From the IMG/VR virus record IMGVR_UViG_3300021426_000068, positions 32,001 to 96,000 of that record: DNA of 64,000 nt; one strand, 5' to 3'. Position 1 is the first letter of the stretch; each line of letters starts with the position of its first letter. Of the stretch, positions 9,268 through 30,174 are shown one piece after another. A program made the translations under genes and the position numbers. A model generated the notes under the pieces. It was not told the origin of the DNA. It made no database searches and saw only the letters and a list, made by a program, of their open reading frames with translations. Source of the stretch: a virus (Duplodnaviria > Caudoviricetes).

Positions 9268-10233
9268 ATGGAATTAAAATATTTTAAAGAATTTAATACT
9301 AAATCCGACTATGATACTTACATTAATGGTGACCCAATTTTACCTAATGTAAGTTTTGTTAATCAGGATGTCTATTATGAAGATGGTAATACACCACCAC
9401 CTATTATTAGTGCTGGGATGATATGTTATCATGATGGCAGTAGTTTCAAGTTTTGTACCAGTGATGAATGGAGTGCTTCACTTGGTGAAGTACAGGGAGT
9501 AGTTGTAGTTCCTTCAAATCATACAATTGATGGAACAGCAAGAATAATGTGTATTGATGGTGTTAATACTGACGGTTCACATGGTGATGATGGTGAACAA
9601 GAAATGGAATGGGGACCAAGAAATATAGACATATGGCTTCGTAATTTAAATCAAGTACCAACATGGGATAATACAATAGGTGGTGCTATTGGTAATAATG
9701 TTTATGGTCGTTTACCTTCAACAAGTAAAGATGGTGACTTTACTGGAGCAACATGTGCCACTGACAGTATTGCTAAGTATGCAGGTTTTACACCATATAT
9801 TCCTAGTCCATATTTAGAAGATGGTAGTCTTAACTCTGATTATATTAATACGGTTAAAGTTCCTAATAATGCATTAAGTGATTTCAACGGTAAATATAAC
9901 ACATCAGTATTGGTTGGATTAGGGACAGCATATACTGCTGCTAATGCATGTCATCAGTACGGAACGACCGCTTTACCAGCTGGTAATTGGTATTTACCTG
10001 CAATGGGTGAACTTGGTTATATAATTTCAAGATATAATGAAATTAATACCGCTTTAGTTGCTTTAAAAGGATATGGTGGCACTGAGTTGTATGGCCAGCG
10101 TACATATTGGAGTTCTACTGAGTACAGTGATTTCGGTGCTCTTGCAGTGGAAACTTTTGTAGGTGATGTTAAATATATGTATAAATATTCCGAGTATTAT
10201 GTTCGTGCCTTTGCCTCTGTTCCTGTTGAATAA
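9268..10233 (+). CDS. Adhesin/receptor-binding protein with C-terminal DUF1566/Lcl-like C-type-lectin fold (DGR-target-like)
   Basis: WYLPAMGEL ... YWSSTEY ... YVRAF; ATG at 9268; N-terminus shared with 28351-30174 protein. Confidence 0.75.
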   Translation: MELKYFKEFNTKSDYDTYINGDPILPNVSFVNQDVYYEDGNTPPPIISAGMICYHDGSSFKFCTSDEWSASLGEVQGVVVVPSNHTIDGTARIMCIDGVNTDGSHGDDGEQEMEWGPRNIDIWLRNLNQVPTWDNTIGGAIGNNVYGRLPSTSKDGDFTGATCATDSIAKYAGFTPYIPSPYLEDGSLNSDYINTVKVPNNALSDFNGKYNTSVLVGLGTAYTAANACHQYGTTALPAGNWYLPAMGELGYIISRYNEINTALVALKGYGGTELYGQRTYWSSTEYSDFGALAVETFVGDVKYMYKYSEYYVRAFASVPVE

Positions 10234-10234
10234 T

Positions 10235-10266
10235 AAAAAAGGTAACAAGTTATTGTTACCTTTTTT
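10235..10266. terminator. Bidirectional intrinsic terminator
   Basis: AAAAAAGGTAACAA-GTTA-TTGTTACCTTTTTT. Confidence 0.8.
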
Positions 10267-10362
10267 CCTTTATTATTTCTTCTAATTTATATGGGTTAAT
10301 AAAATTTTCAGATTTAACCTTAATTATTTCATGTCCTCATCTTAAACACCCACACATATTAA

Positions 10363-10644
10363 CTAATTTTTATTATTAAGTTTTTTTTCAAGACGTTCTA
10401 ATTTATAATTTTTTTCTTTAACAAACTCTTCATAACCACCAAATAAGATAGACATTTGTTCTACCATAATAGACACATCAGCCAGTTCAGTTATAACATC
10501 TTTATCAGTTACTCTATTACGTTTAGATTTATGAACAGCAGCAAGTAATTCACCAATTTCTTCATCAAGCATATCTAATTGTGGTTGAATACCCCAAGTT
10601 AAAATTGCTTGTTCATATAATTTTAATTTTTTTTCTTTTTCCAT
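10363..10644 (-). CDS. MazG-like nucleotide pyrophosphohydrolase
   Basis: EEIGEL ... ELADV acidic motif, 93 aa. Confidence 0.8.
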   Translation of the reverse strand: MEKEKKLKLYEQAILTWGIQPQLDMLDEEIGELLAAVHKSKRNRVTDKDVITELADVSIMVEQMSILFGGYEEFVKEKNYKLERLEKKLNNKN

Positions 10645-10646
10645 AA

Positions 10647-11234
10647 TTATTCATTAATAACATTAATTTGACAAGATTTCATAACAGTAAGTGCTGCTTT
10701 ATGTGATTCAGGTGTTACACCTGCACAACAAGATGCATCAACAGTGATATCAGCAACAGTTGATATTGTACCCCCATAATACCTTGTTTTTAAAAGTAAT
10801 GCATTTGAAATAATACAAATGTTAGTACAATATCCTATAATTTCAATATAAAGATGAAAAATTTTTCCTCTTTCACCTGGATTGTTATTATTAATTTCTT
10901 CAATTAAATCAAATGAACCGAATGTTGGCTTTTCTATATAAGTTACTGTTATATTTCTTTCTTCAGCTGCATCAAGTGCTTGTTTTATACCATTTTCAAT
11001 ACACCATCCTGGTGTTGCCTTAATACAATGTTCTACAGGAAGTGCCAAACCTTCTTGTGTTTTAAGATAATCATGTTTATGAGTATCCATTGTTACATAA
11101 ATTTGACTTCCTTCAAAATTATTAATTTTTTCAATAATGTTTGGTACAGCATTAATTGCTTCTTCGTTACGAAGACTTCCATAAATAAAGTCATTTTGTG
11201 GGTCAATCACACATAAAATTTGATTTTTTTCCAT
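10647..11234 (-). CDS. pncA: Nicotinamidase/isochorismatase-family cysteine hydrolase
   Basis: VIDPQNDF, DTH, HC..TPGW, EKPTFGS, GYCTNIC (D-K-C triad plus metal ligands). Confidence 0.8.
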   Translation of the reverse strand: MEKNQILCVIDPQNDFIYGSLRNEEAINAVPNIIEKINNFEGSQIYVTMDTHKHDYLKTQEGLALPVEHCIKATPGWCIENGIKQALDAAEERNITVTYIEKPTFGSFDLIEEINNNNPGERGKIFHLYIEIIGYCTNICIISNALLLKTRYYGGTISTVADITVDASCCAGVTPESHKAALTVMKSCQINVINE

Positions 11235-11240
11235 AATTTT

Positions 11241-12380
11241 TTAATTTTCATAATCATTAAGAATAATAAACAAAGAAATACCTATATTACATAAGATTGT
11301 TAATATAAACAATGTTATTATTTGATTTTTTGTTAATGAAACTTTTATATATTTAAAATCTGAGAATTCTTTTCTTTTCCAATGATGTAAATTATTAATT
11401 AACCATTGAGAATATTCAGTTAAACTTAATACTTCATTATTTCTATATTTTTCCATTGTTTTAATTGCCATTTTTCTATCATCTTCCCATGAAAAAGAAT
11501 AACACCAATTAACAGTTTTATCTGGATTTAATGAAAAACAAACAATTAATTCATTTTTATTTCCACCTTGCCAATATGATTGTTGTTTATATGCTGTTTC
11601 TATAGTTTTGTTAGAATCAAAAATTAATACGAAAATTCTAAATTGTTTTTCTTTACCATAAAAACCATTTATATATTTAAGTTCATTAATATCATTGTTA
11701 TTAAACAGTATATTAGTATTATTTAATAACGGATTTTGGTCTAAACTATATATATCAGGATAATCATATAGATTAAATTCTTTTGCTTCTTTTTTAGAAA
11801 TCTCTTCAAACTTAAATATAGAATTTGAAGCCTTTATTTTATTTTCATAACCATGTGGTTCTGTTATTGTATATATTGTTTCTTTTTGATTATCCCAAAA
11901 ATAGTCTTGTGCATCACCATCTATTCTATAATAATTACGATGCATATCAACAAACACCATTTTTGATTTAAACCTATTTTTAATCAAATTAAAGGTGTTT
12001 TCATTTAAAGAATGTTCATAACTACTTATATTACTTACATATGTCCAAAATTCTGCATGATATTGACGATATGAACAATCATATTCTTCTTCTTTATAAA
12101 TTGTATTTCCTTCATTATCAGTACCAACCGCAACCTTTCTGGTACATCTTCTTTCTATCCATTCGTCCCATTCATCATAATGTCTAATTTTTGTGACATA
12201 ACCACCTAAATATTCAGTATCTTCTGTTTTTGATATAATCATTATTTCTTTTACTATTAAAGTAAAAAGAATTGAAGGTATAATTAATATTATATATTCC
12301 CACCATACAATATTCTTCTTAAAAAACATAAGAAGAAATATAGAAATTATGAATGGGAGAAAATATAAAATTGTTTCCAT
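11241..12380 (-). CDS. Membrane protein with large soluble domain
   Basis: Two N-terminal and one C-terminal hydrophobic helices; WQGGNKNE motif. Confidence 0.65.
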   Translation of the reverse strand: METILYFLPFIISIFLLMFFKKNIVWWEYIILIIPSILFTLIVKEIMIISKTEDTEYLGGYVTKIRHYDEWDEWIERRCTRKVAVGTDNEGNTIYKEEEYDCSYRQYHAEFWTYVSNISSYEHSLNENTFNLIKNRFKSKMVFVDMHRNYYRIDGDAQDYFWDNQKETIYTITEPHGYENKIKASNSIFKFEEISKKEAKEFNLYDYPDIYSLDQNPLLNNTNILFNNNDINELKYINGFYGKEKQFRIFVLIFDSNKTIETAYKQQSYWQGGNKNELIVCFSLNPDKTVNWCYSFSWEDDRKMAIKTMEKYRNNEVLSLTEYSQWLINNLHHWKRKEFSDFKYIKVSLTKNQIITLFILTILCNIGISLFIILNDYEN

Positions 12381-12383
12381 TAA

Positions 12384-12929
12384 TTATTTTTTAAATAAGT
12401 CAACATCATCATCAATACCTGTTTCTATTGTACTTTTTGTTCTTGTAGAAGATATTACTGTATATTCAATTGGTATTTTATTATGAATAAACCATCTTGA
12501 AGGATATGTTTCACACAAAGTACTATGTTCTCTAATTATATCAAGCATAAGTTCCTGTGAATGCTGAAATTCAGTTCTATAAATTTCAATTGAAGCCATT
12601 AAATCTTTATAGAGAGAAGTATCAAAGTTTGGATTGCTTTCCTGTATCCATTTCATAAGACTACCATCACCATTTGAATATCTACCACCAATAATTTCTG
12701 GATATATTTCTTTAAAAGCATCTTTGTATTCATTGGAAACTTGTGCTTTTTGTTGAATAATTTTCCACATTTTATCGTAAACACCTTCTACTTTTCCATA
12801 TTGTGCTTCTGCTCTTTTTCTTAATTCAATCTCTCTATTATTGTAACTAAAACTCATTATTACTGTTACAATAGCCCCAAGGCCAATAATTAGTACTAAA
12901 ATTAATGTTAAAAGTTTATTACTGTTCAT
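12384..12929 (-). CDS. LemA-like membrane-anchored protein
   Basis: Single N-terminal TM helix, SYNN, helical bundle ending TYPSRWF. Confidence 0.55.
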   Translation of the reverse strand: MNSNKLLTLILVLIIGLGAIVTVIMSFSYNNREIELRKRAEAQYGKVEGVYDKMWKIIQQKAQVSNEYKDAFKEIYPEIIGGRYSNGDGSLMKWIQESNPNFDTSLYKDLMASIEIYRTEFQHSQELMLDIIREHSTLCETYPSRWFIHNKIPIEYTVISSTRTKSTIETGIDDDVDLFKK

Positions 12930-13197
12930 TTTCGTTTATTTTTTTAAGTTTAAATATAATTCCTTTATCAATGTTTTTAATTTCAGTTACCATATATCCG
13001 TCATCTGTTTTATAACCTCTTGCAATATATGGTCCACCTGGTGGGTCAATTGCTATTATGTCATCTAATGTTCCTGTTATCCCATATGGATAATCATATT
13101 CTTGAAGTAAAGAATATTCATCATCATTTATTTTTATAAACTGCGTTACAATATAATCTCTATTTGCTAAATTGATTATGTTCTTCATGTCATTCAT
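12919..13197 (-). CDS. Hypothetical protein
   Basis: IDPPGGPYI motif; ATG 13197 follows promoter at 13213-13244. Confidence 0.6.
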   Translation of the reverse strand: MNDMKNIINLANRDYIVTQFIKINDDEYSLLQEYDYPYGITGTLDDIIAIDPPGGPYIARGYKTDDGYMVTEIKNIDKGIIFKLKKINENEQ

Positions 13198-13212
13198 ATT
13201 TTTCCTTTTTGA

Positions 13213-13244
13213 CAAAACTATATTTTTTATTTTTTAAAAACAAA
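13213..13244 (-). promoter_or_regulatory. Bacteroidota-type housekeeping promoter (-33/-7)
   Basis: Minus strand TTTG-N20-TAGTTTTG. Confidence 0.65.
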
Positions 13245-13303
13245 CTTTTTGAAAATTATTTGTTTTTTGTAATGCTTTCTGTTAATTAATAGAACTGTAT
13301 GAA

Positions 13304-13368
13304 TATTTAGCTTAACATATTTAGCTTAAAATAATTTATTTAGCTTATAATAAAATAATTAAGCTAAA
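13304..13368. repeat. Three direct TATTTAGCTTA repeats plus one inverted partial copy
   Basis: Copies at 13304, 13318, 13337; inverted TAAGCTAAA at 13360-13368. Confidence 0.8.
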
Positions 13369-13444
13369 CATGATATCGTTAATTATAAGTTATAGGTTTC
13401 TTGAAAATTTTTTCTTTTATGTTGAGTTTCTAAAAATTTAAATG

Positions 13445-13452
13445 TATATTTG
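13445..13452 (+). promoter_or_regulatory. Bacteroidota -7 box TATATTTG
   Basis: TAnnTTTG about 25 nt upstream of ATG 13477. Confidence 0.6.
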
Positions 13453-13476
13453 TAAAAAACATAAAGATTGTAAATT

Positions 13477-14040
13477 ATGAGTTTTAAAGTTTATAATGGA
13501 GTAAAGTTCAAAACTAACAGTTTATATGAACTTAAAGAACAATTACTAAGTATAAAAAAAGAATGTATTAAGATTGCTAATGATGCTATTAATACTACTG
13601 ATATTTATAACTTAACTCTTATGAATAAAATAGAAATATCAGAAGAAAACATAGTTAATATTTGGAAAGCAGTATCAGAAGAAATAAGAACATGTAGTCC
13701 ATTTGCACCTTTATTTAATTTTAGTATTGTTATATACCCTTACGAAGATGGAACATTATATGGTGTTATCTTTGCTGATGGCTTAAAAGAATTCCGTAAT
13801 TTAATAGATAAATATTGTGAAGATTTTTACTATTGGGATAATGTAGATATGCCATCAAATGTTTCTGAAAAAGAATGGAAACATAGAATGCACGTTTGGA
13901 ATAATATTTTTAGTAATTCTGCACGTTATAGTGATGCTGGTTTTTCTTATGAAATAGTAAGTTATCGTGATTTATCTTTACGAAGAATTAAAGAAGTTTT
14001 GACTGAATATCTAGAAAAAAATAATAAAAAAGATGAGTGA
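13477..14040 (+). CDS. Hypothetical protein
   Basis: Intact ORF; MSFKVYNG, DFYYWDNVD. Confidence 0.65.
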   Translation: MSFKVYNGVKFKTNSLYELKEQLLSIKKECIKIANDAINTTDIYNLTLMNKIEISEENIVNIWKAVSEEIRTCSPFAPLFNFSIVIYPYEDGTLYGVIFADGLKEFRNLIDKYCEDFYYWDNVDMPSNVSEKEWKHRMHVWNNIFSNSARYSDAGFSYEIVSYRDLSLRRIKEVLTEYLEKNNKKDE

Positions 14041-14761: not shown

Positions 14762-14783
14762 TTTGGTATAAATTTGTGTAGTT

Positions 14784-15608
14784 ATGAAATTTAAAAATCT
14801 TGAAGATAAATGTCAGTATTATAGAAGTCTTACTGATTATAGAATTCTTCCTAATAGTAATATTCTTGTAATGCTTGATGGAAAAAAATTCAGTACTTTA
14901 ATTAAGAATAATTTTAAGAAACCGTTTGATGATACATTCATTGATATGATGAATCGTACTGCACAGTTTCTTTGTAATAATGTGCAGGGTGTAAAATTTG
15001 CATATACCCAAAGTGATGAAATTAGTCTTCTTATAACTGATTATGATACACCTAACACTGACACACCATTTGGAGGAAGAATCTGTAAGTTACAGTCTCT
15101 TCTTGCTTCACTTGCTACAAGTGAATTTAATAGATGGTTTACTATATGGAATCTTAATAAGTGTAAAGACAACGTTGATGTTGGTAAGTTTATTTCTAAG
15201 ATGAAAATGGCTCAATTTGATTGTAAGGTATGGACAGTACCTAGTTTGAACGATGCTTATGCATGGTTTCTTTATCGTCAGATTGACTGTGTTAGAAACT
15301 CAAAACAACAAACAGCACAAACTTATCTTCCTAATACACAACTTCTTAACCTTGATACTGATAAACAGATTGAAATGTGTAAAAATGAAAGTGGTATTGA
15401 TTGGAATAGTTTTGAAGATATATATAAATATGGGAGATTTGTATATAAATTTCCTGAACATTTTTCAAAAACGCTTTCTGATGAAACAAATGTAGAATTT
15501 GAAAGAAATAAATTTAAAGTGGTTCCAGCATTTTTACTTAACGAAAATAAAGAACAATTTTTTGAAATAATAAAAAATAGTATAAAAAAGACCGATTATG
15601 AAGATTAA
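14784..15608 (+). CDS. tRNA(His) guanylyltransferase Thg1-like 3'-5' polymerase
   Basis: LDGKKFS, YTQSDEIS, FDCKV, RQIDCVRNS. Confidence 0.9.
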   Translation: MKFKNLEDKCQYYRSLTDYRILPNSNILVMLDGKKFSTLIKNNFKKPFDDTFIDMMNRTAQFLCNNVQGVKFAYTQSDEISLLITDYDTPNTDTPFGGRICKLQSLLASLATSEFNRWFTIWNLNKCKDNVDVGKFISKMKMAQFDCKVWTVPSLNDAYAWFLYRQIDCVRNSKQQTAQTYLPNTQLLNLDTDKQIEMCKNESGIDWNSFEDIYKYGRFVYKFPEHFSKTLSDETNVEFERNKFKVVPAFLLNENKEQFFEIIKNSIKKTDYED

Positions 15609-16065: not shown

Positions 16066-16089
16066 ACAAAAATAAAAAGAATAAAAGTT

Positions 16090-16380
16090 ATGGCTGAAGA
16101 AAGGTTTGCAACAAAAGATGAAATTTTAAAAGCAATTAAAGAATCTTATAAAAAGAAAAAAATCTCTTACAAAGAATATATGGTTCAAATCAATAAAGTT
16201 GAAAAACATTATGATGAATGGAAGAAAGGATATGAAGCAGAAAGAGGTATTAATAATGAAATTGATATGACTAATGAAGAACTTGCTATTGGAAAAAGAT
16301 TAACAGAACTTCAGGTTAAAAAAGATAATATATTAGATAAAGAAAAAGATTTAATAGATGAAGAAAAAGCAGATGATTAA
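16090..16380 (+). CDS. Hypothetical protein
   Basis: Intact ORF. Confidence 0.55.
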   Translation: MAEERFATKDEILKAIKESYKKKKISYKEYMVQINKVEKHYDEWKKGYEAERGINNEIDMTNEELAIGKRLTELQVKKDNILDKEKDLIDEEKADD

Positions 16381-18027: not shown

Positions 18028-18028
18028 T

Positions 18029-18253: not shown

Positions 18254-18258
18254 TTTTC

Positions 18259-19014
18259 ATGGAAGGATATAAAATTCAATATAATTTTTTTGAAACAATT
18301 GTTGCTGGTGATAACCCTAAAGAACTAATGAAACGGTATGATAACACTGTTAAGGTTGAAGATTATATTGTTTGTAAATTTAATGATGCAAAAAAATTAA
18401 AAGAAAAAACAATTATAGCATATAAAGAAATTGTTAACAATAACAACATACCAACAGTAACAAAAGAATATTATCAAGAAGAATTAGAAGAAATAGAAAA
18501 TATGTCTGATGAAGATGCTTTTTTCTATTTAACATATGACTGTGATTATGATGAAGATAATAATGCAATATCAAATAAAAATCCTAAAGGAAAATATTCT
18601 TTTTTTCAACCAGGAAAATTGTTTTCTGTTCCTTTTATAACAAAAGACGGAAATGAAGTGTTTCAAGCACATAAAGGTGAAATTGATTGGGAAAAGATGC
18701 ATTTGCATGGTACTGAAATATATGACATAGCATGGGAAATGGTTGTTAATAAAAGAAAACCAAGAACTGAATATGAAAAACAAATATATGAAAATATGAA
18801 AGAAAGAACCGCTTACTTTAGAAGTTTTGGAAATAAAGAAAATTATGTTATTCATAGTACAGCATTTTGGGCATATGCATTTGTTGATAAAAACAATTGG
18901 TATGAGTTAGAAGATAATATGAATCAATTTATATGGGTTTCTGAATTCTATGATAGGTTTATTAAACCATTAAAAGATGAAACACTTTTAACAATATATG
19001 AATGTAAAAAATAA
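18259..19014 (+). CDS. Hypothetical phage protein
   Basis: Intact 251-aa ORF. Confidence 0.65.
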   Translation: MEGYKIQYNFFETIVAGDNPKELMKRYDNTVKVEDYIVCKFNDAKKLKEKTIIAYKEIVNNNNIPTVTKEYYQEELEEIENMSDEDAFFYLTYDCDYDEDNNAISNKNPKGKYSFFQPGKLFSVPFITKDGNEVFQAHKGEIDWEKMHLHGTEIYDIAWEMVVNKRKPRTEYEKQIYENMKERTAYFRSFGNKENYVIHSTAFWAYAFVDKNNWYELEDNMNQFIWVSEFYDRFIKPLKDETLLTIYECKK

Positions 19015-19042
19015 AAAGGAAGTCTTTAAAGACTTCCTTTTT
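19013..19042. terminator. Bidirectional intrinsic terminator
   Basis: AAAAAGGAAGTC-TTTAAA-GACTTCCTTTTT. Confidence 0.85.
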
Positions 19043-19052
19043 ATTAATTAAA

Positions 19053-22000
19053 TTAAAAATCAGTACTTGTTGTATTATCATGTTTACCAATTGTATACGG
19101 ATTAGTAAATGATATTGTAATTTTATTTGTTGTACTATTACCAGTAACAGAAATTTCATCTGTTGTACCTTGTAATATATTAATAAGAGAAGTAAATAAA
19201 TCTGAACTAAATTTTTGTTCAATTTTTGTTTCAATTGTGCTATCAAGTGTATTAATAATATTTTGAATATTATTTACATTAGTTTCAAGATTATTTATTC
19301 TATTTTCAAATTCAATTACTTTATTTTCAAGTAATGTTACTTTATTAACAATATTTTTAAATTCTTCATTTGATGCTCTTGCTAATGTTGTAACGTCTCC
19401 ACTTAAAGTTATTATATCTTCACTAACTTCAGCGAGTTTATTATAACTTGCAACACCATTTTCAACATCAACTTTCATTCCAATCTTATAGTCATCAATA
19501 ACTAAATAGTTTGTTGAATCAGCAGAAACTGTATATATATCAACTAAACTTGAAAGTGGAACTGTTATTATCTCTTTTCCTGAAGCGGTATTAAATGTAA
19601 ATATCAAATTAGAACCAACTAATTGTACATTTTCAAGCATACCATCTTTAACAAATTTATTAACATTAATAGAAGATATTGTTTCACCATTATTTCCCTT
19701 AAGAACAATATATTCATTATTGGAAGTATCTGAACTTGTTGCAAGTGATATTGTTGTAACTAATCCAGAATCATCTTGTGAAAGAATTTTATCCGAAGGA
19801 TTTAATGTTAATTTAATTTTTGTCTCATTATCTGTTTTTTCTAGTGAAATTGCTTTATCACCTTTTAATGTTTTTGAATCAATATTATTAATAATATCTT
19901 TAATATTATTAATTTCTGAAACAGTACTTGAACTTAATGTTGTAACATTACCACTAATGGAATTTTCAGCATTAGTTGCTCTTGTTACTTCGTTGGTTAT
20001 TCTGTCTGTAAGATTAGAAATTATAACTTCAGTTGATGATGTATAGCCTGTTATCATTCTTTCAAGTCTTTCATCTGTATCTATACGACTATTTCTTTCC
20101 TCACTTACAGCATTAGTGTATTGTCTTATAACATCAGTTATCGCTGCTTGTCTATTTGAAATTTCATTATTAATTTCAGTTTGAAGAGATGTTTCTTTAT
20201 TAGTTGCTCTTGTTGCTTCATTATTAATCAATGTTGTTAATTCAGATTCTTTACTGGTTGCTCTTGTAGTCTCAGTATCAATTTTTCTATCAAGTAAAGA
20301 ATCACCATTTTGTCTTGCCAATTCTTCAGTTTGAATTTTAGTATTAAGTTCGTTTTCAACTGATATTGCACGTTCTTTTTCAGTTTGAATTTTACTATTA
20401 AGTTCAGATTCTTTACTGGTTGCTCTTGTAGTCTCAGTATCAATTTTAGATTCAACTGTTAATAATTGACTATTAATATTTTGTGTTAAATTATTAACAG
20501 TATCTTTTATTGCATTTTCAACTTCAGTAGCACGTTCTTCTTCATCTATAATTTTATTATTTAAATCATTTAAAGAACGAGAAACAACTCTTTCATTATC
20601 TTCAATTATTTTTTTAATTGTTGTTTCAGCACTTAATGAACGTTCTGTTTCAACATTAACAGCATTGTTTATAGCAGAATTAATTCCACTAATTTTAACA
20701 CCGTTTGAACTAACAGTAAGATATTCTTCTGAATTTGGGTCAATTAAAACATAAACTTTACTTTCTTCAACTTTTAAACCGTCTTTAAATTCAGTTTCTG
20801 AAAGGAAAGAAGAAACATCAAGGTCAACAATATTTGTAGAACCATCTGAAAGAATATATGTAAATCTAATATATTCTTTTTCACCAATTGTGATTAATTC
20901 AACTGATTGAAGTGAACTATCTTTATAAATTTTTACTGTATCACCAAGATAATTTCCATTATTATCAACTAATGCATATTCTTCTTTAACATTTGTTGAA
21001 GAAGGATTTGAAAGTTTTTTAATAGAAAGTTTTGTACTAAGTGTTCCATCATTATTTTTAGCAATTGTTAAACCATCTATATTAACTGATAAATCAGTAC
21101 CAGAATCTGATTTGTTTACCAACACAGTTTTATCTTCTGATTTAACCGTAATTTTTTTAATTATATCTTCTGTTGAAGCACTAAATTGTTCAACAGAATC
21201 ACTTAATTCATTAAGATTATTTTTTATGGTTTCTGTTGAAGCACTTAACAAACTAATATTATTATTAGTTTCATTAATGCTATCAATTATATCTTGTTCT
21301 TTTTTTATTGCTCTATCAATTTCATCACTTAATTGTTCTTTAACAACACTAAATTCATTTATGGTAGCACCACTAAAATTATTTATTTTCTCTTCAAGAT
21401 TAGTAATTTGATTAATAGTGTTTGAACTCAATTGATTAAGTGTTCTATCAAGAATAATATCAGCATCATTAAGTGATACGGCATCATCTATATAATTTGC
21501 TGTATGTGTATGAGGATATGTACCATCATTATTTAAACCAGCACCTGTTTGTGTGTTATCAAGTTCTGTTTGAATGCTGTTATCTTTTTCAACTGAACGA
21601 ATAATTTCATTTGAAATATTTTCTTCAACAGATATAAATCTATTAATACTTGCAGCACTTAATTGATTAAGTGTTCTATCAAGAATAAAATCAGCATCAT
21701 TAAGTGATACAGCATCATCTATATAATTTGCTAAATCATCTGGTGAAGTATTGTGTTTTTTATATGTACCATCTTCATTTAGACCAGCACCTGTTTGTGT
21801 TGTGTTAAGTTCACTTTGAATGTTATTTTCAACAGTTGTTGAACGTGTAGTTTCATTCTCTATTTTATCTTCAATCTTTTTGAGTTCTTCATTTGTAGCA
21901 TGTGCTAATGTTGTGACATCACCACTAATTGATTCTTCAGCAGCAAGTGCACGGTCTTTTTCTTCATTAAAATTGTTTTCAACACGTTTAAGTTCTCTAT

Positions 22001-23378
22001 CAAGGATAACATCAGCATTATCAAGTGAAGTTGCTTCATGAATATAATTTGTTTCACCTTGTGTGTTATGTCTATTATATGTACCATCTTCATTTAGACC
22101 AGCACCTGTTTGTGTTGTGTTAAGTTCACTTTGAATTGTATTGGCTGACAGTTCAGTATTTTCCCTAAGATTATTAATTGAGTTTTCTAAAGTGGTTTCA
22201 GCAGTTATTGCACGTTCTTTTTCTGCATTAACAACATTAACAATTGTGTTTTGTATACCACTAAGTTTAACACCATCTGGACCAACTGTCATAAATTTTT
22301 CCGAAGAAGAATCAATATTCACATATACTTTATGATTATCAACTCTTAAACCATCTAAAAATTCACTTTCTTCAAGAAAAGTTTCAACATTTATACAAAC
22401 TAATTGATAAAATCCATCTGCTTTATAATAAATTAAACATAATGCAGTATCACCAGTACCAGGTGTTACAATTGGTTTAGTATAATCATTAAGTCTATCA
22501 TCAACATGACCAAGATATACATCATAGAGAGAACTATCTTTATAAATTAAAATACGTTCACTATTAGGTTGAACTTGTCCGTCTTTATTTACTAAATCAT
22601 ATGCTTCTCTAACATTTTTGTCTAAACCTGTTGTTACTTTAACAAGGTGTAAACCATTTAATGCTTCTGTTTGTTTTTCAGAAAAATCTATGAAGTTTAA
22701 ATCAAGTTGTTTTATTGCATCAAGTAAACTATAATTATCATGTATTGGGTGTGGTTTTTTTGCTTTACCATGATAATCCTCATATTCACCAATTGGAATA
22801 CTATTACCACTTATATTAATATAAGCAATATTATCTCTTACATTACCAGATGTTTCATTAACAACAATATTTTTAACAGATTCTTCTTTTAATTGTTTAA
22901 CATCATCATCAACACGTTTAAGTTCTTCGTCAAGTTTAACATCAGCTTCATTAAGAGAATTTACATTATCAATGTAATTTGCTTCAATATTTTTTTCATA
23001 AGTACCATCTTCATTCAAACCAGCACCTGTTTGTGTCGTGTTAAGTTCACTTTGAATTTCTTCTAATTTTTCAAAAATCTCTTTTGAATTACCAGATAAT
23101 TCAGTTATATCTTCTTTAAGTTTTGCTGAATCAATAATGTGATAATCTTCTAAAACATTTTCAAATTGTTCACCTTTTGTTCCTATAGCAAACATTACTT
23201 GTGTTTTTCCACTATCATCAATGTACGATACAACAACAGGTTCACCAATAAGAGATTTATCAAATCTCTTATCAGTTCCAATCATATTATCTGTAAGTCT
23301 TTTTATATAATTTAATGCATCTTGTCTTGTTATATTTTTTGATGCACCATCAAAATGTACAAATTGTAATCTATTCAT
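19053..23378 (-). CDS. Long fibre-like virion protein with internal repeats
   Basis: 1441 aa; coiled-coil E..RA..E repeats; 4x QxELxxTQTGAGLNxDGTY; 2x EFxDGLxV..KVYVxID. Confidence 0.7.
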   Translation of the reverse strand: MNRLQFVHFDGASKNITRQDALNYIKRLTDNMIGTDKRFDKSLIGEPVVVSYIDDSGKTQVMFAIGTKGEQFENVLEDYHIIDSAKLKEDITELSGNSKEIFEKLEEIQSELNTTQTGAGLNEDGTYEKNIEANYIDNVNSLNEADVKLDEELKRVDDDVKQLKEESVKNIVVNETSGNVRDNIAYINISGNSIPIGEYEDYHGKAKKPHPIHDNYSLLDAIKQLDLNFIDFSEKQTEALNGLHLVKVTTGLDKNVREAYDLVNKDGQVQPNSERILIYKDSSLYDVYLGHVDDRLNDYTKPIVTPGTGDTALCLIYYKADGFYQLVCINVETFLEESEFLDGLRVDNHKVYVNIDSSSEKFMTVGPDGVKLSGIQNTIVNVVNAEKERAITAETTLENSINNLRENTELSANTIQSELNTTQTGAGLNEDGTYNRHNTQGETNYIHEATSLDNADVILDRELKRVENNFNEEKDRALAAEESISGDVTTLAHATNEELKKIEDKIENETTRSTTVENNIQSELNTTQTGAGLNEDGTYKKHNTSPDDLANYIDDAVSLNDADFILDRTLNQLSAASINRFISVEENISNEIIRSVEKDNSIQTELDNTQTGAGLNNDGTYPHTHTANYIDDAVSLNDADIILDRTLNQLSSNTINQITNLEEKINNFSGATINEFSVVKEQLSDEIDRAIKKEQDIIDSINETNNNISLLSASTETIKNNLNELSDSVEQFSASTEDIIKKITVKSEDKTVLVNKSDSGTDLSVNIDGLTIAKNNDGTLSTKLSIKKLSNPSSTNVKEEYALVDNNGNYLGDTVKIYKDSSLQSVELITIGEKEYIRFTYILSDGSTNIVDLDVSSFLSETEFKDGLKVEESKVYVLIDPNSEEYLTVSSNGVKISGINSAINNAVNVETERSLSAETTIKKIIEDNERVVSRSLNDLNNKIIDEEERATEVENAIKDTVNNLTQNINSQLLTVESKIDTETTRATSKESELNSKIQTEKERAISVENELNTKIQTEELARQNGDSLLDRKIDTETTRATSKESELTTLINNEATRATNKETSLQTEINNEISNRQAAITDVIRQYTNAVSEERNSRIDTDERLERMITGYTSSTEVIISNLTDRITNEVTRATNAENSISGNVTTLSSSTVSEINNIKDIINNIDSKTLKGDKAISLEKTDNETKIKLTLNPSDKILSQDDSGLVTTISLATSSDTSNNEYIVLKGNNGETISSINVNKFVKDGMLENVQLVGSNLIFTFNTASGKEIITVPLSSLVDIYTVSADSTNYLVIDDYKIGMKVDVENGVASYNKLAEVSEDIITLSGDVTTLARASNEEFKNIVNKVTLLENKVIEFENRINNLETNVNNIQNIINTLDSTIETKIEQKFSSDLFTSLINILQGTTDEISVTGNSTTNKITISFTNPYTIGKHDNTTSTDF

Positions 23379-23438
23379 TAATTTAAATTTTTTGGATATT
23401 TTATTATTATTTAAATAATAATTTATTTGAAATTATGA

Positions 23439-26123
23439 TTATTCATAATTAGGTAATAACCCAAAGTTTGTATCAATATTTATTTTAATTTCTTCATCGT
23501 TTTCTCTCATAAGAATAAGACCATCTTGTACTGTTAAAACATAATCTTTATCTTTTATATCTTTTCCATCAAGTCTTTCAATTTCTGATTGTGTTGAAGC
23601 ACTTAATTCACTTATATGTTCATTTGTTTCATCAATTTTTATTTTTAATCTTTCATCTTCAATCTTTCTTTCTTCTTCTTCTATTTTAAGTGATTTATCA
23701 AGTGTTTTAATTGCATCAATAATTGTCTTATCTTCTGAAATATAATTATTGCTTGAAACATTTTTATAAAAAGTATGTGTACTTGTTTGAGTATTAAAAA
23801 CTTCTATATATGTTTCACCTGTCCAACCACTAGCACTTGGAATATCTGGATAATCTTCAGGAATTCTTATGATTGTATGTGGATTTGATTCTGCTTCTTC
23901 TTTAGATACAGGTTTCCAAATGGCATCATAAAAATCAATATTATAACCTTCTTCAGAATTTCCATCTGCACCAATAATATCTTTTGCTATATTATCGTCT
24001 ATTTTATTAGAACGTTCAATTTCTGATTGTGTTAATGCACTTAATTCTTTAACATCTTCTTTAAGTTGTTCAATATCAGAAGTTAATCCTGAAACTAAAA
24101 TACCATCTGGTCCAACTGAAATACAATTATCAGAATTAGGGTCAATTTTTACATAAACATTATGATTTATAACTTCTAAACCATCTTTAAATTCTTTTTC
24201 TTGTATGAAATCTTCTAATGGTAATTTCACTAATTTAAATTTACCTGTATTTGTTTGATAAATAATAAAAATAAATTCACTTTTGCCAGAAGTTGAAGGT
24301 TCTATAATCCATTCACCATCTTCTTCATTAATGGATACATTTCCTTCATCATCATAACCATATGTTATTTCTTTTATTGATTTATCTTTTGGTATGTTAA
24401 TTGTAGCACCTCTTGTTTCACCATTGACAAATAATTCGTAAGAAGATAAAATTGTTTCACTTGTTGGTTCTACTTCTTTTACTTCTATAGATTCAATTGC
24501 TTCAGCTAACATTGTTTCAGCTGATAATGCTCTTTCTGTTTCAGCATCAATCTTATCATTAAGTTCTTCAGTTGCACCACTTATTTCATCAATTTTTTCA
24601 TTCATTTTATCAAGTTCTTCCTGTACTTCTTTTTTAAGTGCTTCGGAAGTGTCAATTAATTCAAATGTTCCATCTTCTTTTTCATAAACTCTCCACTCAT
24701 GATAAGTATCACCTGATGTCGAAGAGTCTCCATCATAATCAAGTATAACAACAGAATCACCAGGTCTCATTTGTTTTTTGAGCCATACTTTTCCATCCCA
24801 TTCATTAATAAAGAATACTTCTTTAATTTCTCTATCTTCTCCAGATAAACTTCTCCATTCAGAAGATGTCACACCACTGAATTCTTCATTAAGAAGACCA
24901 ATATTAACAGAAGTCCATATTTTAGAATAACCAACTTCTGGGTTTGAAATTAAAACAGTTGGCACAACATCACCAAGAATATTATCATATTCATTAAATT
25001 CAGTACATCCATATTCATAATCTTTTACAAGACGAAGTGAAAGTCTTGAAGTTGGTTTTGATGATTCCTGAAGAACTTGTCTTGAATCATATGAGAACGT
25101 TCTTGTAAAAATATTTGGATTAGAATTGTTAGCTACTTCATCAGGTGTATAAGACCAGAAAGAAGCAAGTTTATATAAACCTTCAATATCATCATCCCAA
25201 TCTTCAGCAATTACACCTCTACTACCTTCACCATATCCAATTGGTATAATATGAAATGTGTTTGGACTACCTGTTGTTGGAAGATTATCTTCTGATAAAA
25301 CAATTTCAGTTTCACCAGATATAGTTTCTTCTTTAATAGGTTTCCATGAACTAACACTTTTAGCCCTTCCTCCTGCAAATTTACCAGTCCAAACATTTAC
25401 ATCTGTTGTATCATGTGTTCTATCTTCTTCACAATATTCAGCAGCATTAAGTAAATCTGCCCAATCTTTTCTTGATGGTACTCTCCAAAGTGAACCAGAA
25501 TCTTCAAGTTCTTTTTGAATTTTTTTAATTGCTTCATATGTGTATAAAACACCAAATGCTTGATAATTTTCTTTTGTAACAATTCTAAAACCTTTACCAT
25601 GTTCAGAACCTTCAGGCATAGGTGTTTTTCCATCTGTTCTATCTAAAAAATATTTAGCTGGTGAATAAGTTCCTGTTTTTTCAATATCATTAATTCTTAA
25701 TGGATTTGATACTCTTCCATCACCTTTAATTGTATAATCAGTTGCAACTTTTATTTCTTCACCTGCGACAAAAAAACCGTCTAATTCTTCTTTTGTACCA
25801 TCAGGATAAGTTACAATTAAAACCCCTCTATCTTTATCAAATTCAAATGTCATTTTTTTGAAAAGGATTTCAGGTAAATCAGGTAATGTTGCAACAATAG
25901 TATCACCATCAACTCTTGTTAATACTAATTCATTGTTGTCATTAAATTCAGCCGATTCAATATCATAACTTCTAAGGAAGAAAAAATTCTCATCCATCTC
26001 ACTACCTAAAAGAGAACAATTCTTTGTGTAATCACCTGGATATTTACTCACTAATTTAAAGTATTTTACACCATTGATTTCTTTTACAATAGCACCTTTA
26101 TTAGTTTTTATTTCGCTAGACAT
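23439..26123 (-). CDS. Fibre-like virion protein with Fib_succ_major-like (CLec) domain
   Basis: LYTYEA..WRVPSRKDW..FWSYT..LSLRLVKD; shares EFKDGLEV..VYVKID module with 19053-23378; ACTATTTAT upstream. Confidence 0.7.
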   Translation of the reverse strand: MSSEIKTNKGAIVKEINGVKYFKLVSKYPGDYTKNCSLLGSEMDENFFFLRSYDIESAEFNDNNELVLTRVDGDTIVATLPDLPEILFKKMTFEFDKDRGVLIVTYPDGTKEELDGFFVAGEEIKVATDYTIKGDGRVSNPLRINDIEKTGTYSPAKYFLDRTDGKTPMPEGSEHGKGFRIVTKENYQAFGVLYTYEAIKKIQKELEDSGSLWRVPSRKDWADLLNAAEYCEEDRTHDTTDVNVWTGKFAGGRAKSVSSWKPIKEETISGETEIVLSEDNLPTTGSPNTFHIIPIGYGEGSRGVIAEDWDDDIEGLYKLASFWSYTPDEVANNSNPNIFTRTFSYDSRQVLQESSKPTSRLSLRLVKDYEYGCTEFNEYDNILGDVVPTVLISNPEVGYSKIWTSVNIGLLNEEFSGVTSSEWRSLSGEDREIKEVFFINEWDGKVWLKKQMRPGDSVVILDYDGDSSTSGDTYHEWRVYEKEDGTFELIDTSEALKKEVQEELDKMNEKIDEISGATEELNDKIDAETERALSAETMLAEAIESIEVKEVEPTSETILSSYELFVNGETRGATINIPKDKSIKEITYGYDDEGNVSINEEDGEWIIEPSTSGKSEFIFIIYQTNTGKFKLVKLPLEDFIQEKEFKDGLEVINHNVYVKIDPNSDNCISVGPDGILVSGLTSDIEQLKEDVKELSALTQSEIERSNKIDDNIAKDIIGADGNSEEGYNIDFYDAIWKPVSKEEAESNPHTIIRIPEDYPDIPSASGWTGETYIEVFNTQTSTHTFYKNVSSNNYISEDKTIIDAIKTLDKSLKIEEEERKIEDERLKIKIDETNEHISELSASTQSEIERLDGKDIKDKDYVLTVQDGLILMRENDEEIKINIDTNFGLLPNYE

Positions 26124-26200
26124 ATTATATTGTTAAAAATTATATTTATTATTTTTAGATAAATAGTTTTTAAAGAGTAAAAGATGAATTCTATTATTTT

Positions 26201-28312
26201 TTATTTTTCAAATAAACAATTTCTTGTTGTTATATTATCAATATAACCATTATAAATTTTAAAATTAGAAATATCTCCAATAAAACTTCCACAAAAGTTT
26301 TTTTCCATTGGAAACATATATTCTAAAAATTGATAATAATCTGGTAAAATTGATTCAAGTAAACCTTGTGTACCACCACCTAATGATATATTAAATGGAA
26401 CGGCTTCTTGTTTTAAATATGTGTCATTAAGTTCTCTAAAATTAAATTCTGTTAATTCTTCACTTATAAATACAAGATTTCCATTCACAAAAAAGAATAA
26501 CTTCATTTTACGTTTACCTTTATTTATATCAGGACATATTGTACCATCTTTTCTATAATTAATTGTTGGATTTAATATTGTTATTTTTACAACAACATCA
26601 TTCCATTCATTATATTTAATTATTCCATCCTTAGAATATTCTTCTTTAACTGTAAAATAAGGCTTATTCTCTTCATCACATTCAACAACACCATATTTAT
26701 AACCAATAGCACCGTTTTCTGTTATTTTTAAACAAAAAGCATTGTTTTTAATGTCTTTATATATATTGTATGGTATTGAATTTTCTTCTTGATAAAGATA
26801 TATGTTATTTACAGTATAACCTGTTTTAGTCCTGTTCATGAGAGGAAAATAATTTATGTTCCCCCAATCATTTCTACCAGTAAGAATAACCTTCGTGTCT
26901 TCTATCCAATCTTTTACTGTTAATCCAAGTGGTGTTCTATCAAACATTAAAAACTTGTTATCTGTTTCAATTTCATAATAACCTTTTTTTGTTATTAAAT
27001 TTCCAATACTATCTTTAATCTTTTCCTTCTCTATTTTAATATCTTGCTTAAAATAATCTTCTGAAGCGTATTTTTTCCCACCACCACATTCTAAATCTTT
27101 AAAATAATCATCAGCATAATACTCATCACAAGAACAATCAGGAACTTTTTCTTCTTTTTTATCACATCCACCTTTTCCCTTACAACAATTTACGGAAGAT
27201 TCATCATACTTGTATGTGTATAAATCAGATACATGCCATTTATAATCAGGTATTGATGTTATGTTACATTCACAAGTGTCACGTGGAAAAACTTTTCTTG
27301 GTTTTTCTTCTTTCTCTTCTTCACCTTTACAATTACACCCATCAGCATCACCATTGAAAATTACTTCTATGCCCCTTTCACATGGCTCAGTGTCTTCCTT
27401 ATTAAGATAATCATCAGCAAAATAATTTTCACACGGGTCAATTTCAGGTTCTTTACAATTACATGGTTTTGTACATCCACTATCAAAATAATCATCACCA
27501 AAATAATTTTCGCAAGGATTTACTTCTTCTTCAATGTCAGAAGTATAATCTTGTGGCTCAACTATATGATTTTGTATACTTGCACTTGGGTCTAAATATC
27601 CATCATTTTCCATACTTTCTATTTTCATGGTGTCTGTTATAGCAGAATCCGTTTTATACATATTTATAAATTTATTCTCTGCTCTTGTTCCCATAAAAAA
27701 GAAAATACCGTTATTCTCTGGATGTATTTCATTAATAGTACCCCTTTCAACATCATAATCACTTCTTGGTCTTATTCTAAATTGTAAATTCCATTCTAAA
27801 TCTGGACCATTTGGTAATACTTGATAATTAAAACCAAACAATTTATAAAAACCTTGATAAAAACCGCCTTTAAAACTTATATATTTTTTATTTTCTTCTG
27901 TTTCTAAAAACATTGGATAAATAAAATTTTGTGTGTTTCCTGTTATTGGTGTCATGAAAAAACGTGTATCACCTGATTCTATATCATATGTACTACCTGT
28001 TAAAATTTTTAAAAAGTCACTATTTGTTATTCTATCTTTTTGATATTGAATAATTCCATTGTCTATTCCAGTAAACCCTATATCTTTTAATAAAACACCA
28101 TCATTAATTGCTTCATCCCATGTAATATCTGAATATAAAATACCATCATTAATATTAAGTTCTGAAAAATCTGCTATAAGATTTTCATTTAAATTACAAT
28201 TTGAACCAATAACTTCTCCACGATAGAGCATAAAATCAAAATACTCATCGTTATAAAGTCTTGCATCTATACTTCTTGTACTATTATTTTTAATATTTTG
28301 ATATGTAAGCAT
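26201..28312 (-). CDS. Putative structural protein with Cys/Asp-rich insert and LamG-like C-terminus
   Basis: GGFYQGFY, GTRAENKF, LGGGTQGL, FIGDISNFKIY. Confidence 0.55.
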   Translation of the reverse strand: MLTYQNIKNNSTRSIDARLYNDEYFDFMLYRGEVIGSNCNLNENLIADFSELNINDGILYSDITWDEAINDGVLLKDIGFTGIDNGIIQYQKDRITNSDFLKILTGSTYDIESGDTRFFMTPITGNTQNFIYPMFLETEENKKYISFKGGFYQGFYKLFGFNYQVLPNGPDLEWNLQFRIRPRSDYDVERGTINEIHPENNGIFFFMGTRAENKFINMYKTDSAITDTMKIESMENDGYLDPSASIQNHIVEPQDYTSDIEEEVNPCENYFGDDYFDSGCTKPCNCKEPEIDPCENYFADDYLNKEDTEPCERGIEVIFNGDADGCNCKGEEEKEEKPRKVFPRDTCECNITSIPDYKWHVSDLYTYKYDESSVNCCKGKGGCDKKEEKVPDCSCDEYYADDYFKDLECGGGKKYASEDYFKQDIKIEKEKIKDSIGNLITKKGYYEIETDNKFLMFDRTPLGLTVKDWIEDTKVILTGRNDWGNINYFPLMNRTKTGYTVNNIYLYQEENSIPYNIYKDIKNNAFCLKITENGAIGYKYGVVECDEENKPYFTVKEEYSKDGIIKYNEWNDVVVKITILNPTINYRKDGTICPDINKGKRKMKLFFFVNGNLVFISEELTEFNFRELNDTYLKQEAVPFNISLGGGTQGLLESILPDYYQFLEYMFPMEKNFCGSFIGDISNFKIYNGYIDNITTRNCLFEK

Positions 28313-28350
28313 AAATAATATTAACTTTTTAATTATAATTCTTTATTTAA

Positions 28351-30174
28351 TTATACTTCTTGAACAACCCAACCTGATGGAATACCATTAATCCCTGTTG
28401 GCCAAGTAACACCTGCTGCTTTAACAAATGTTCCTGAAGAAGTAATATCTCTTACCCACTGATATAAACAATTACTTGCACTTATATTTGTTGCTAAACA
28501 TTTAATATAATTTAATGATGTACAACCATAAAACATACTATAATAACAATATTGTGCTAACGTAGTAGCAGGTAATTCAGGTGCTGTGACTAAACTTGTA
28601 CAACCATTAAACATACTTTGATAACAACCATTTGCTAACGTAGTTGCAGGTAGTTCAGATGCTGTGACTAAACTTGTACAACCAATAAACATACTATAAT
28701 AACAATATTGTGCTAACGTAGTAGCAGGTAGTTCAGATGCTGTGACTAAACTTGTACAACCTTCAAACATACTATAATAACAACCAAGTGCTAACGTAGT
28801 TGCAGGTAATTCAGGTGCTGTGACTAAACTTGTACAACCAATAAACATACTATAATAACAATATTGTGCTAACGTAGTAGCAGGTAATTCAGGTGCTGTG
28901 ACTAAACTTGTACAACCAGCAAACATATTAGAATAACAATTACTTGCTAACGTAGTTGCTGGAAGTATTGAAGGTGCTGTGACTAAACTTGTACAACCAA
29001 TAAACATTTCAGCATAACAACTATCTGCTAACGTAGTAGCAGGTAATTCAGGTGCTGTTGTAAGAGAAGTACAACCACTAAACATACTATAATAACAATT
29101 ATCTGCTAACGTAGTTGCAGGTAATTCAGGTGCTGTTGTAAGAGAAGTACAACCACTAAACATTTCAGCATAACAACCAAGTGCTAACGTAGTTGCAGGT
29201 AATTCAGGTGCTGTGACTAAACTTGTACAACCAGCAAACATATTAGAATAACAATTACTTGCTAACGTAGTAGCAGGTAATTCAGGTGCTGTGACTAAAC
29301 TTGTACAACCTTCAAACATACTATAATAACAACCATCTGCTAACGTAGTAGCAGGTAATTCAGGTGCTGTGACTAAACTTGTACAATAATAAAACATACT
29401 ATAATAACAATCATCTTTTAATGTAGTAGCAGGTAAAATAAGGTTTTCAGCAGATGTTAAACCAGTACAAACAGAAAAAATTGAGAATGTATCATTTTCT
29501 GCTAATTCAATTTTATCTATAAAATCATCACCATAGATAAGACTCATTATATTTCCTTCAATTTCAAAACCAGCCGTTGAATCACTAAATAAATTAAAAA
29601 TATCTCTATTAATTCCTTTAAACATTAAAACATCACCATTTACAACTGATATTGTAGAACTTGTACTTACCCATGTCTCACCACCATCGGTTGAATATTC
29701 TAATTCATGATTATTTAAATATATTTCACCATCTTCTATTATCTTAAATGTTAAATATTGTTTACTATAATCTGGTTTTTCCTGTGCTTTTTGTGTGATT
29801 GTCCATGTACCAATAATGGAATTATTGTGCTTTGCTATAACACTACCTGTTTGTTGTTCTTCAGTTGTGTTTTCATTAAAATTAGCAGTAATATTACCAT
29901 TGTTATCAGTAATAGCCGTTACTATTCCTGTAAATTCAAAAGTAATGAAAGGATAGTTAGTGTCATATGTATTAATGATACTTGTATCGGTTGATTCAAC
30001 TTCAGTTGAATCAACACCAAAATTAAAATAATAATCTTCAGGCGTTGGTATACCATCTTTATAATAGACATCCTGACCAACGAAACTTACATTTGGTAAC
30101 ATTGGTTTACCATTAATGTAAGTTATATATTCACCATATGTTTCAAACTCCTTAAAATGTTTTAATTTACTCAT
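28351..30174 (-). CDS. Adhesin with 12 tandem 26-aa BspA-like leucine-rich repeats
   Basis: ATG at 30174 after late motif (30192-30201); PELPATTLAxxCYxxMFxGCTSLVTA repeats; GIPSGW cap. Confidence 0.8.
   Translation of the reverse strand: MSKLKHFKEFETYGEYITYINGKPMLPNVSFVGQDVYYKDGIPTPEDYYFNFGVDSTEVESTDTSIINTYDTNYPFITFEFTGIVTAITDNNGNITANFNENTTEEQQTGSVIAKHNNSIIGTWTITQKAQEKPDYSKQYLTFKIIEDGEIYLNNHELEYSTDGGETWVSTSSTISVVNGDVLMFKGINRDIFNLFSDSTAGFEIEGNIMSLIYGDDFIDKIELAENDTFSIFSVCTGLTSAENLILPATTLKDDCYYSMFYYCTSLVTAPELPATTLADGCYYSMFEGCTSLVTAPELPATTLASNCYSNMFAGCTSLVTAPELPATTLALGCYAEMFSGCTSLTTAPELPATTLADNCYYSMFSGCTSLTTAPELPATTLADSCYAEMFIGCTSLVTAPSILPATTLASNCYSNMFAGCTSLVTAPELPATTLAQYCYYSMFIGCTSLVTAPELPATTLALGCYYSMFEGCTSLVTASELPATTLAQYCYYSMFIGCTSLVTASELPATTLANGCYQSMFNGCTSLVTAPELPATTLAQYCYYSMFYGCTSLNYIKCLATNISASNCLYQWVRDITSSGTFVKAAGVTWPTGINGIPSGWVVQEV
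28505..29440 (-). repeat. Tandem 78-bp coding repeat array, 12 units
   Basis: GCTAACGTAG recurs at 78-bp period (28556, 28634, ...); one unit has an extra codon. Confidence 0.95.

Follow-up and report, generated by a model that had tools for sequence, protein, structure and literature searches.

Two distant genes begin with the same N-terminal module

We analysed a stretch of 64,000 nucleotides (nt), hereafter the window, which corresponds to bases 32001-96000 of the 132,807-bp IMG/VR record IMGVR_UViG_3300021426_000068, a Caudoviricetes sequence with a GC content of about 26% and a completeness of ~37% as estimated by CheckV. The subject of this work is a short N-terminal module found at the start of two distant genes of the window, here called carrier 1 and carrier 2. 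Carrier 1 encodes a protein of 321 amino acids (aa) on the plus strand (9268-10233) and carrier 2 a 607-aa protein on the minus strand (28351-30174), and both reading frames were confirmed. The ATG at 9268 is considered the right start of carrier 1 because a GGAG motif lies 10 nt upstream and the stop codon of an 81-aa gene is found 2 nt before it, and the ATG at 30174 is considered the right start of carrier 2 because the homologs of this protein begin with the same residues.

On BLASTP, residues 2-44 of carrier 1 align without gaps to residues 3-45 of carrier 2 with 29 of 43 positions identical and 34 of 43 similar, at an expect value (E) of 1e-15. The second-best segment between the two proteins has an E of 3.2 and no further significant similarity was found; given that only one segment is significant, the two carriers are considered unrelated beyond the module. 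Both observations agree with the initial annotation, which had described a ~40-aa N-terminal module common to the two proteins and unrelated remainders. Taken as residues 1-40, the module is encoded at 9268-9387 (plus strand) in carrier 1, as delimited by BLASTP against carrier 2 and by AlphaFold2 (AF2) modelling, and at 30055-30174 (minus strand) in carrier 2, as delimited by AF2.

A profile of the module searched against the six-frame translation of the entire record retrieved exactly three carriers. The third one, carrier 3 (L001:6771-7730, minus strand, 320 aa), lies ~30.8 kb past the end of the window and is a paralog of carrier 1, with 63% identity overall and a more divergent module (49%). 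The signature of the module consists of KYLKKF, a Y, YING, LPNVS and then V-x-Y, the K, F, Y, Y and P-N-V-S positions being invariant or nearly so. Furthermore, a contig of 374,316 bp is recorded as encoding the 321-aa protein of carrier 1 as well.

The module is widespread in large gut phages

A three-sequence profile was searched against 1.84 billion cluster representatives at 50% identity and matched at least 617 clusters at E ≤ 1e-3, 20 of them at E ≤ 1e-10. Among the matches listed, the match starts within the first 7 residues in 146 of 150 clusters. With a 24-sequence profile and a database at 90% identity, at least 1,783 matching proteins were found among the 8,000 candidates scored, many of them encoded on contigs of 300-410 kb. 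Such a profile-based count of carriers had been suggested at the outset, and it places the module in at least 617 (50% identity) or at least 1,783 (90% identity) clusters.

The carriers come mostly from gut and rumen phage contigs of 200-410 kb. Two carrier contexts are large myovirus-like genomes, as shown by the presence of sheath, gp19-type tube, DNA polymerase B, sigma factor and amidase genes. A narrow pattern searched against 185,579 prokaryote species genomes gave three loci only, in two rumen or reindeer Bacteroidales metagenome-assembled genomes (MAGs) and in one Actinomycetota MAG. On tblastn the module has no match in 50,697 GenBank phage records, and the GenBank phage collection displays no DNA match to the region. 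Moreover, with the library copies used, searches of the carriers against Pfam-A, NCBIfam and PHROG assigned no model to the module, nor did Pfam in 107 homologs. Two families, PF26707 and PF27129, were considered as the module family and set aside: they are assigned to few homologs, and because they are present only in subsets of these they cannot be the module. In the papers searched on megaphages and on phages with leucine-rich repeats (LRRs), no description of the module was found.

Predicted structure of the module and of the heads

The AF2 model of carrier 2, built from a 50-row alignment, reaches a mean predicted local distance difference test score (pLDDT) of 88.5. Its module consists of a strand (residues 7-10), a helix (13-21) and two further strands (28-32 and 35-39) with a pLDDT of 80-90. 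In carrier 1 the module displays a strand at residues 7-9, a helix at 12-19 and strands at 28-31 and 34-37 with a pLDDT of 63-77, that is, an identical strand-helix-strand-strand order. This shared order, together with the disordered stretch that follows, points to a predicted small independent fold on a flexible tether. In the ESM Atlas, the module alone retrieved only noise, with template modelling (TM) scores below 0.5.

Since the module is found strictly at the N-terminus, it might be no structural anchor at all: it might be a targeting, processing or folding tag, for instance one removed by the prohead protease, or the carriers might be free adhesins released at lysis. The internal proteins of T4 carry a capsid-targeting sequence that is removed by the prohead protease, and the start of the module, M-K-x-Y-x-K-F, is presumably similar to the T4 targeting peptide in a superficial manner. 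However, the module is a 40-aa domain that is predicted to fold by itself and has an F, a Y and P-N-V-S as invariant positions, which sets it apart from an amphipathic leader of 10 residues, and no conserved cleavage motif is seen at its end. Moreover, LRR and lectin heads would make little sense within a capsid, and we regard a tag, or release of the carriers at lysis, as very unlikely.

In carrier 2 the module is followed by a linker (residues 41-71; 29962-30054, minus strand), of which residues 48-71 are predicted to be disordered with a pLDDT below 50. Next come beta-rich domains (residues 72-246; 29437-29961, minus strand), modelled with strands at a pLDDT of 59-80 for residues 77-129 and above 90 for residues 140-246, and finally an LRR solenoid with its C-terminal cap (28351-29436, minus strand), for which AF2 proposes 12 units of 26 aa. 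The repeats are also apparent in the DNA, as Tandem Repeats Finder detects 11.7 tandem units of 78 bp at 28519-29436 with 85% matches (period 78). In BFVD, the best fold matches of carrier 2 are proteins from uncultured phages that are named 'surface protein 26-residue repeat' or BspA LRR. By sequence, it scores 27.4 bits against the PARCEL repeat TIGR02167, under the cut-off of 30, and has no Pfam match at E ≤ 0.01, hence none to the BspA-type LRR family PF13306. Despite these sub-cut-off scores, the carrier 2 head is predicted to work like a BspA/PARCEL LRR, since its homologs pass the threshold of LRR_5 and its own model is a solenoid of 26-residue repeats.

The remainder of carrier 1 (9388-10233, plus strand, stop codon included) comprises a proline-rich linker (NTPPP) and a lectin-like head, assigned through Lcl_C and phrog_4245. 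Its score against Lcl_C / DUF1566 (PF07603) is 27.2 bits (E 5e-6) and misses the Pfam gathering cut-off of 34.9; a precomputed table assigns PF07603 to the same protein, and phrog_4245 matches residues 184-318. The nearest ESM Atlas cluster is viral and Lcl_C occurs in 36% of its members. The AF2 model of carrier 1 is poor (mean pLDDT 51.6), and its residues 111-249, with a pLDDT below 50, are unsuited to a fold search; a PDB sequence search with this protein gave no matches. Thus, of the two head folds assigned initially, the beta domains and LRR array of carrier 2 were recovered in the model, but the C-type-lectin fold of carrier 1 stays with a family score below cut-off and a poor head model.

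Unrelated heads are exchanged behind the module

Pfam was run on 107 carriers of at least 150 aa and identified LRR_5 in 52, LRR_8 in 24, Lcl_C in 6, FNIP in 4 and Big_2 in 2, many carriers being without any family. The heads are hence of the BspA/PARCEL-type LRR, Lcl_C/FISUMP lectin-like or immunoglobulin-like (Ig-like) type, or have no assigned family. An all-against-all BLAST of the heads separates them into 16 unrelated groups, and into 17 in a set of 201 carriers, where the biggest groups have 148 (LRR), 24 (FISUMP/Lcl_C-like) and 11 members.

Closely similar modules occur on unrelated heads: 23 of the 87 module pairs that are at least 90% identical carry heads lacking detectable similarity, as do 179 of the 511 pairs that are 80-90% identical. 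The clearest case is a chimera in a 93-kb relative (L003), whose head is that of a carrier 1 ortholog (66% identity) and whose module is of the LRR gene type, with 36 of 41 residues identical to carrier 2 and a DNA sequence near-identical to that of LRR-gene modules. The switch point is located directly after the residues DGIPTP. Because near-identical modules carry unrelated heads and because of this chimera, the heads, judging from the sequences compared, are exchanged in nature behind the module. The interchangeable heads on a discrete N-terminal module that had been proposed from the window are thus borne out, with at least 17 unrelated head groups.

The conversion-like DNA identity of L003 also fits a reading in which gene conversion has spread the shared 5' end as a mere cassette for recombination or expression, made up of promoter, leader and first codons and devoid of any domain function. 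In the same direction, the similarity between the window and an 8.7-kb contig from the source sample is confined to 30040-30203, that is, to the module and its upstream motif, at ~90% identity; this contig suggests that the same community contains a further carrier locus whose flanks are different. Conservation is nevertheless seen at the protein level, as hundreds of clusters at 40-60% identity keep the invariant residues, and the predicted fold is consistent between copies. The copies moreover differ at synonymous sites, hence the constraint acts on the protein, and a cassette without domain function is highly improbable.

The last ~45 residues of the lectin-like heads are strongly variable among homologs, with indels, and this variation underlies the earlier idea that carrier 1 is diversified by a diversity-generating retroelement (DGR). 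The reverse transcriptase family RVT_1 was searched for in the 132.8-kb record and in five relatives, one of which is a 412-kb record rated 100% complete, and gave no match; no template repeat for the last 290 nt of either lectin-like gene is present in the record except the paralog itself. As neither reverse transcriptase nor template repeat was found, and as the variable region contains indels, the DGR route was rejected for the carrier 1 head. Ordinary divergence of a ligand-binding face explains the C-terminal variation better, the missing 63% of the genome leaving a small loophole for a DGR.

Late-type motif and genes surrounding the carriers

The 11-mer AACTATTTATA is present in 8 exact copies in the window (positions 2331, 8209, 30192, 42424, 48584, 51255, 53384 and 55183) for 0.53 expected, and an ATG is found 5-31 nt after 9 of the 10 copies of the whole record. 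One copy (8209-8219, plus strand) stands 31 nt before the ATG at 8251 that opens the three-gene unit 8251-10233 to which carrier 1 belongs, and another (30192-30202, minus strand) 17 nt before the ATG of carrier 2; the late motif that had been noted before both carrier units is therefore confirmed. For carrier 3, a sequence that agrees with the motif at 10/11 positions is found 40 nt before the start. The window also encodes a portal, a major head protein, a terminase and a head-tail adaptor; in the case of the portal (51267-53363) and of the head-tail adaptor (54027-55166), the motif stands 14-20 nt ahead of the start codon. Given the genes that stand behind it, AACTATTTATA is a candidate late promoter or leader element.

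In the carrier 1 unit, the first gene encodes a 255-aa protein (8251-9018, plus strand) and the second an 81-aa protein (9020-9265, plus strand) which is translationally coupled to carrier 1 by its stop codon 2 nt before ATG 9268. The 255-aa protein has no Pfam, PHROG or NCBIfam match; in two relatives only its N-terminal 64-68 residues find a match, away from the carriers, and the 81-aa protein has a single weak match in a relative, likewise away from carriers. One of the matches to the N-terminus of the 255-aa protein (G004:C1:160849-161055) contains one in-frame TGA and one TAG, which may mean either that the gene is broken or that this relative recodes a stop. The next gene downstream of carrier 1 lies on the opposite strand and encodes an isochorismatase-family protein (10647-11234, minus strand, E 2.6e-15).

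Carrier 2 is the first of four genes on the minus strand, followed by those of a 703-aa, an 894-aa and a 1441-aa protein, and the operon is closed by a strong terminator (19045-19010), a 16-bp hairpin with a T-run detected by a terminator scan at 19010-19045 on the minus strand. The 703-aa protein (26201-28312, minus strand) has no Pfam, PHROG or NCBIfam match; its two beta-rich parts are separated by a central stretch in which Cys, Asp and Glu are very abundant and C-x-C and DDYF motifs recur. The 894-aa protein (23439-26123, minus strand) is fibre-like, with coiled-coil stretches and a FISUMP/Fib_succ_major-like domain (Fib_succ_major E 6.5e-7, below cut-off). The 1441-aa protein (19053-23378, minus strand) is fibre-like as well and, as revealed by internal and cross matches, contains two copies of a ~200-aa domain (21972-22652 and 20600-21250, minus strand), a further copy being located in the 894-aa protein (24010-24470, minus strand). 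The 1441-aa protein gave no matches in PDB sequence searches. In three related records the ~200-aa domain recurs at most about 2 kb from carriers, and this domain is a candidate partner of the module, an association that may only reflect an island of fibre genes.

The five related IMG/VR records contain 4, 2, 7, 1 and 1 carriers. In the complete-rated 412-kb record, five carriers and large fibre-like genes lie together in one 16-kb block, and one of the carriers is 1641 aa long. The presence of many different small carriers per genome, with a late motif that also precedes head genes, could suggest that the module anchors decorations on the capsid, neck or sheath, where many copies of LRR, lectin or Ig heads would let the particle adhere loosely to cell surfaces, mucus or plant fibre instead of serving for committed receptor binding. 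The N-terminal domain of T5 pb10 and the capsid-binding domain of T4 Hoc bind a repeated site on the head surface, and the heads of the carriers, which include Big_2 Ig-like domains, are of an adhesin type and non-enzymatic. However, in this record and in three related ones the carriers cluster with fibre-like and not with capsid genes, and a carrier of 1641 aa is unlike known decoration proteins. Decoration of the capsid, neck or sheath is for these reasons unlikely.

The module as a putative attachment foot

The explanation that we favour, with a probability of roughly 55%, is that the module is an attachment foot by which interchangeable heads, adhesin or receptor-binding, are fixed to the virion, the likeliest site being the fibre or baseplate apparatus. 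The proposed arrangement would start with the ~40-residue strand-helix-strand-strand mini-domain, continue with a flexible, often proline-rich linker and end with an adhesin-type head. The module would thereby act as the common foot that fixes LRR, lectin-like or Ig-like heads to a structural virion component in Lak-like megaphages of gut and rumen, and this component would most likely belong to the fibre or baseplate apparatus, whose genes neighbour those of the carriers. Recombination at the boundary between module and linker would swap the heads, and the phage could in this manner change or multiply its adhesion targets while the virion socket stays constant. We infer both the binding of the module to the virion and the site of binding from the layout of the proteins, from the late-type motifs and fibre genes around them, from their restriction to phages and from the precedents offered by Klebsiella phages and by phage Goslar.

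Several observations weigh against an attachment foot. No docking partner of the module was identified. The products of the genes at 8251 and 9020, which were considered for this role, were dismissed as they are not conserved next to carriers in the relatives. At the level of Pfam, PHROG and NCBIfam, no T4gp10-like branching domain or other known anchor acceptor is found in the neighbouring proteins. Furthermore, modules that share a genome do not resemble each other significantly more than modules of different genomes do (permutation p 0.12); within-genome homogenisation was hence discarded, and no sign of co-evolution with a genome-specific socket is seen, the module subtypes being instead conserved across genomes. 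The AF2 models are those of monomers, with oligomeric state and docking outside their reach. Contigs of an RNA library cover parts of the fibre genes of the operon, and such contigs prove neither transcription nor start nor strand; in this RNA run the 5' end of the carrier is among the stretches without contig cover, which makes it uninformative on this point.

A more far-reaching version of the attachment foot would make the module a universal plug for one conserved virion socket of Lak-like megaphages, possibly the ~200-aa fibre domain, with a mixed display of heads; we hold this version as a tentative possibility, itself rather doubtful. If it is true, a single particle would show a rapidly re-assortable set of up to seven or more different adhesin heads. 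Lak-like megaphages are abundant in animal and human guts and uncultured, and to our knowledge nothing is known on their host recognition; a universal plug would offer a first handle on it, as well as a natural display tag, for an entire clade of uncultured giant gut phages. Should the socket be found, it would show how very large virions mount many binding heads.

Nearly 1,800 or more proteins of these phages, all candidate adhesins or RBPs, are recognisable by a single 40-residue domain that lacks annotation, and the module can for this reason be used as a simple search key for host-range determinants. It also defines where heads get exchanged. The module family merits an entry in domain databases, not a new category. 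Indeed, the initial annotation had spoken of a candidate undescribed system, and this holds for the 40-residue module itself, which is in no searched domain library, but not for the design principle, as N-terminal anchors with swappable heads are established (PMC6872550, PMC8262889, PMC13352976, and DUF7941 of Goslar).

Comparison with known systems

Secondary RBPs (receptor-binding proteins) of the Klebsiella phages KP32, K11 and KP34 possess conserved N-terminal docking peptides and form branched RBP systems (PMC6872550, PMC8262889, PMC13352976). The carriers share with them a short conserved N-terminal element, unrelated and exchangeable specificity domains, several carriers per genome and swapping at the boundary. 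The likeness is one of layout only, as the module has no sequence homology to the docking peptide. In contrast to KP32, no T4gp10-like branching domain is detected with Pfam, PHROG or NCBIfam in the 255-, 81-, 703-, 894- and 1441-aa neighbours, by searches that may miss a distant relative at the fold level. Moreover, the megaphage heads are non-enzymatic LRR or lectin-like adhesins whereas the Klebsiella heads are depolymerases, and up to 7 carriers per genome are found in the megaphage records examined. The hosts of the megaphages are probably Prevotella-type gut and rumen bacteria.

In the jumbo phage Goslar, gp22, gp23, gp86, gp92 and gp161 carry DUF7941 and a disordered linker followed by carbohydrate-binding, glycosidase or LRR domains; mass spectrometry showed them to be associated with the virion, and a fibre cloud has been proposed (bioRxiv 10.64898/2026.04.21.720040). 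As in the carriers, one N-terminal module with a disordered linker is thus found on several paralogs. DUF7941 is larger than the module, is globular and has been described from chimalliviruses exclusively (bioRxiv 10.64898/2026.04.21.720040). No Pfam family was found on the module in the 107 carriers with a Pfam copy that is without some recent families, PF26707 and PF27129 among them, and the small size of the module, 40 aa compared to a much larger domain, argues against membership of DUF7941.

This resemblance opens another reading, namely that the module is self- or hetero-oligomerising, the N-domain binding the linker of another protomer so as to form head-to-tail filaments or a 'fibre cloud' without any single socket. 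The layout, which is that of the Goslar proteins (an N-domain that is globular, then a disordered linker and, in some members, LRR or carbohydrate-type domains), and the several carriers per genome are consistent with it. Filament formation is however not indicated for the module carriers. The module, at 40 aa, is far smaller than the DUF7941 N-domain of roughly 150 aa, the linkers of the carriers are short and not conserved, and the full-length carriers of the records examined include no abundant head-less member like Goslar gp23. We consider oligomerisation of this kind quite unlikely and retain the attachment foot.

Other particle-binding N-termini, such as those of T7 gp17, the head-binding domain of the P22 tailspike and the N-domain of T4 fibritin, are of 50-150 aa, trimeric, and have one or few partners per phage. 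A conserved N-terminus that binds the particle (putatively so for the module) and a variable distal part are common to these proteins and the carriers; in contrast to them, the module is a mini-domain of 40 aa on many small, probably globular heads.

With respect to the heads, carrier 2 resembles BspA/PARCEL LRR proteins by its predicted solenoid of 26-residue repeats and by its best viral fold matches, which are so named, and carrier 1 as well as eleven or more other carriers match Lcl_C or Fib_succ_major. The bacterial BspA and Lcl_C proteins have signal peptides, lipoprotein boxes or sorting domains, whereas the phage proteins have the module instead.

Additional observations on the record

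The sequencing runs that contain this DNA are labelled as animal, bovine or sheep gut metagenomes. Two further features of the window lie outside the carrier units. At 14784-15608 (plus strand) a 274-aa protein with a clear Thg1 (tRNA-His guanylyltransferase) domain is encoded (E 1.6e-27), which is noteworthy as the phage also has a tRNA array. Finally, the genes at 30871-31713 and 31963-32808 (plus strand) are tandem paralogs, with 44% identity over 280 aa.

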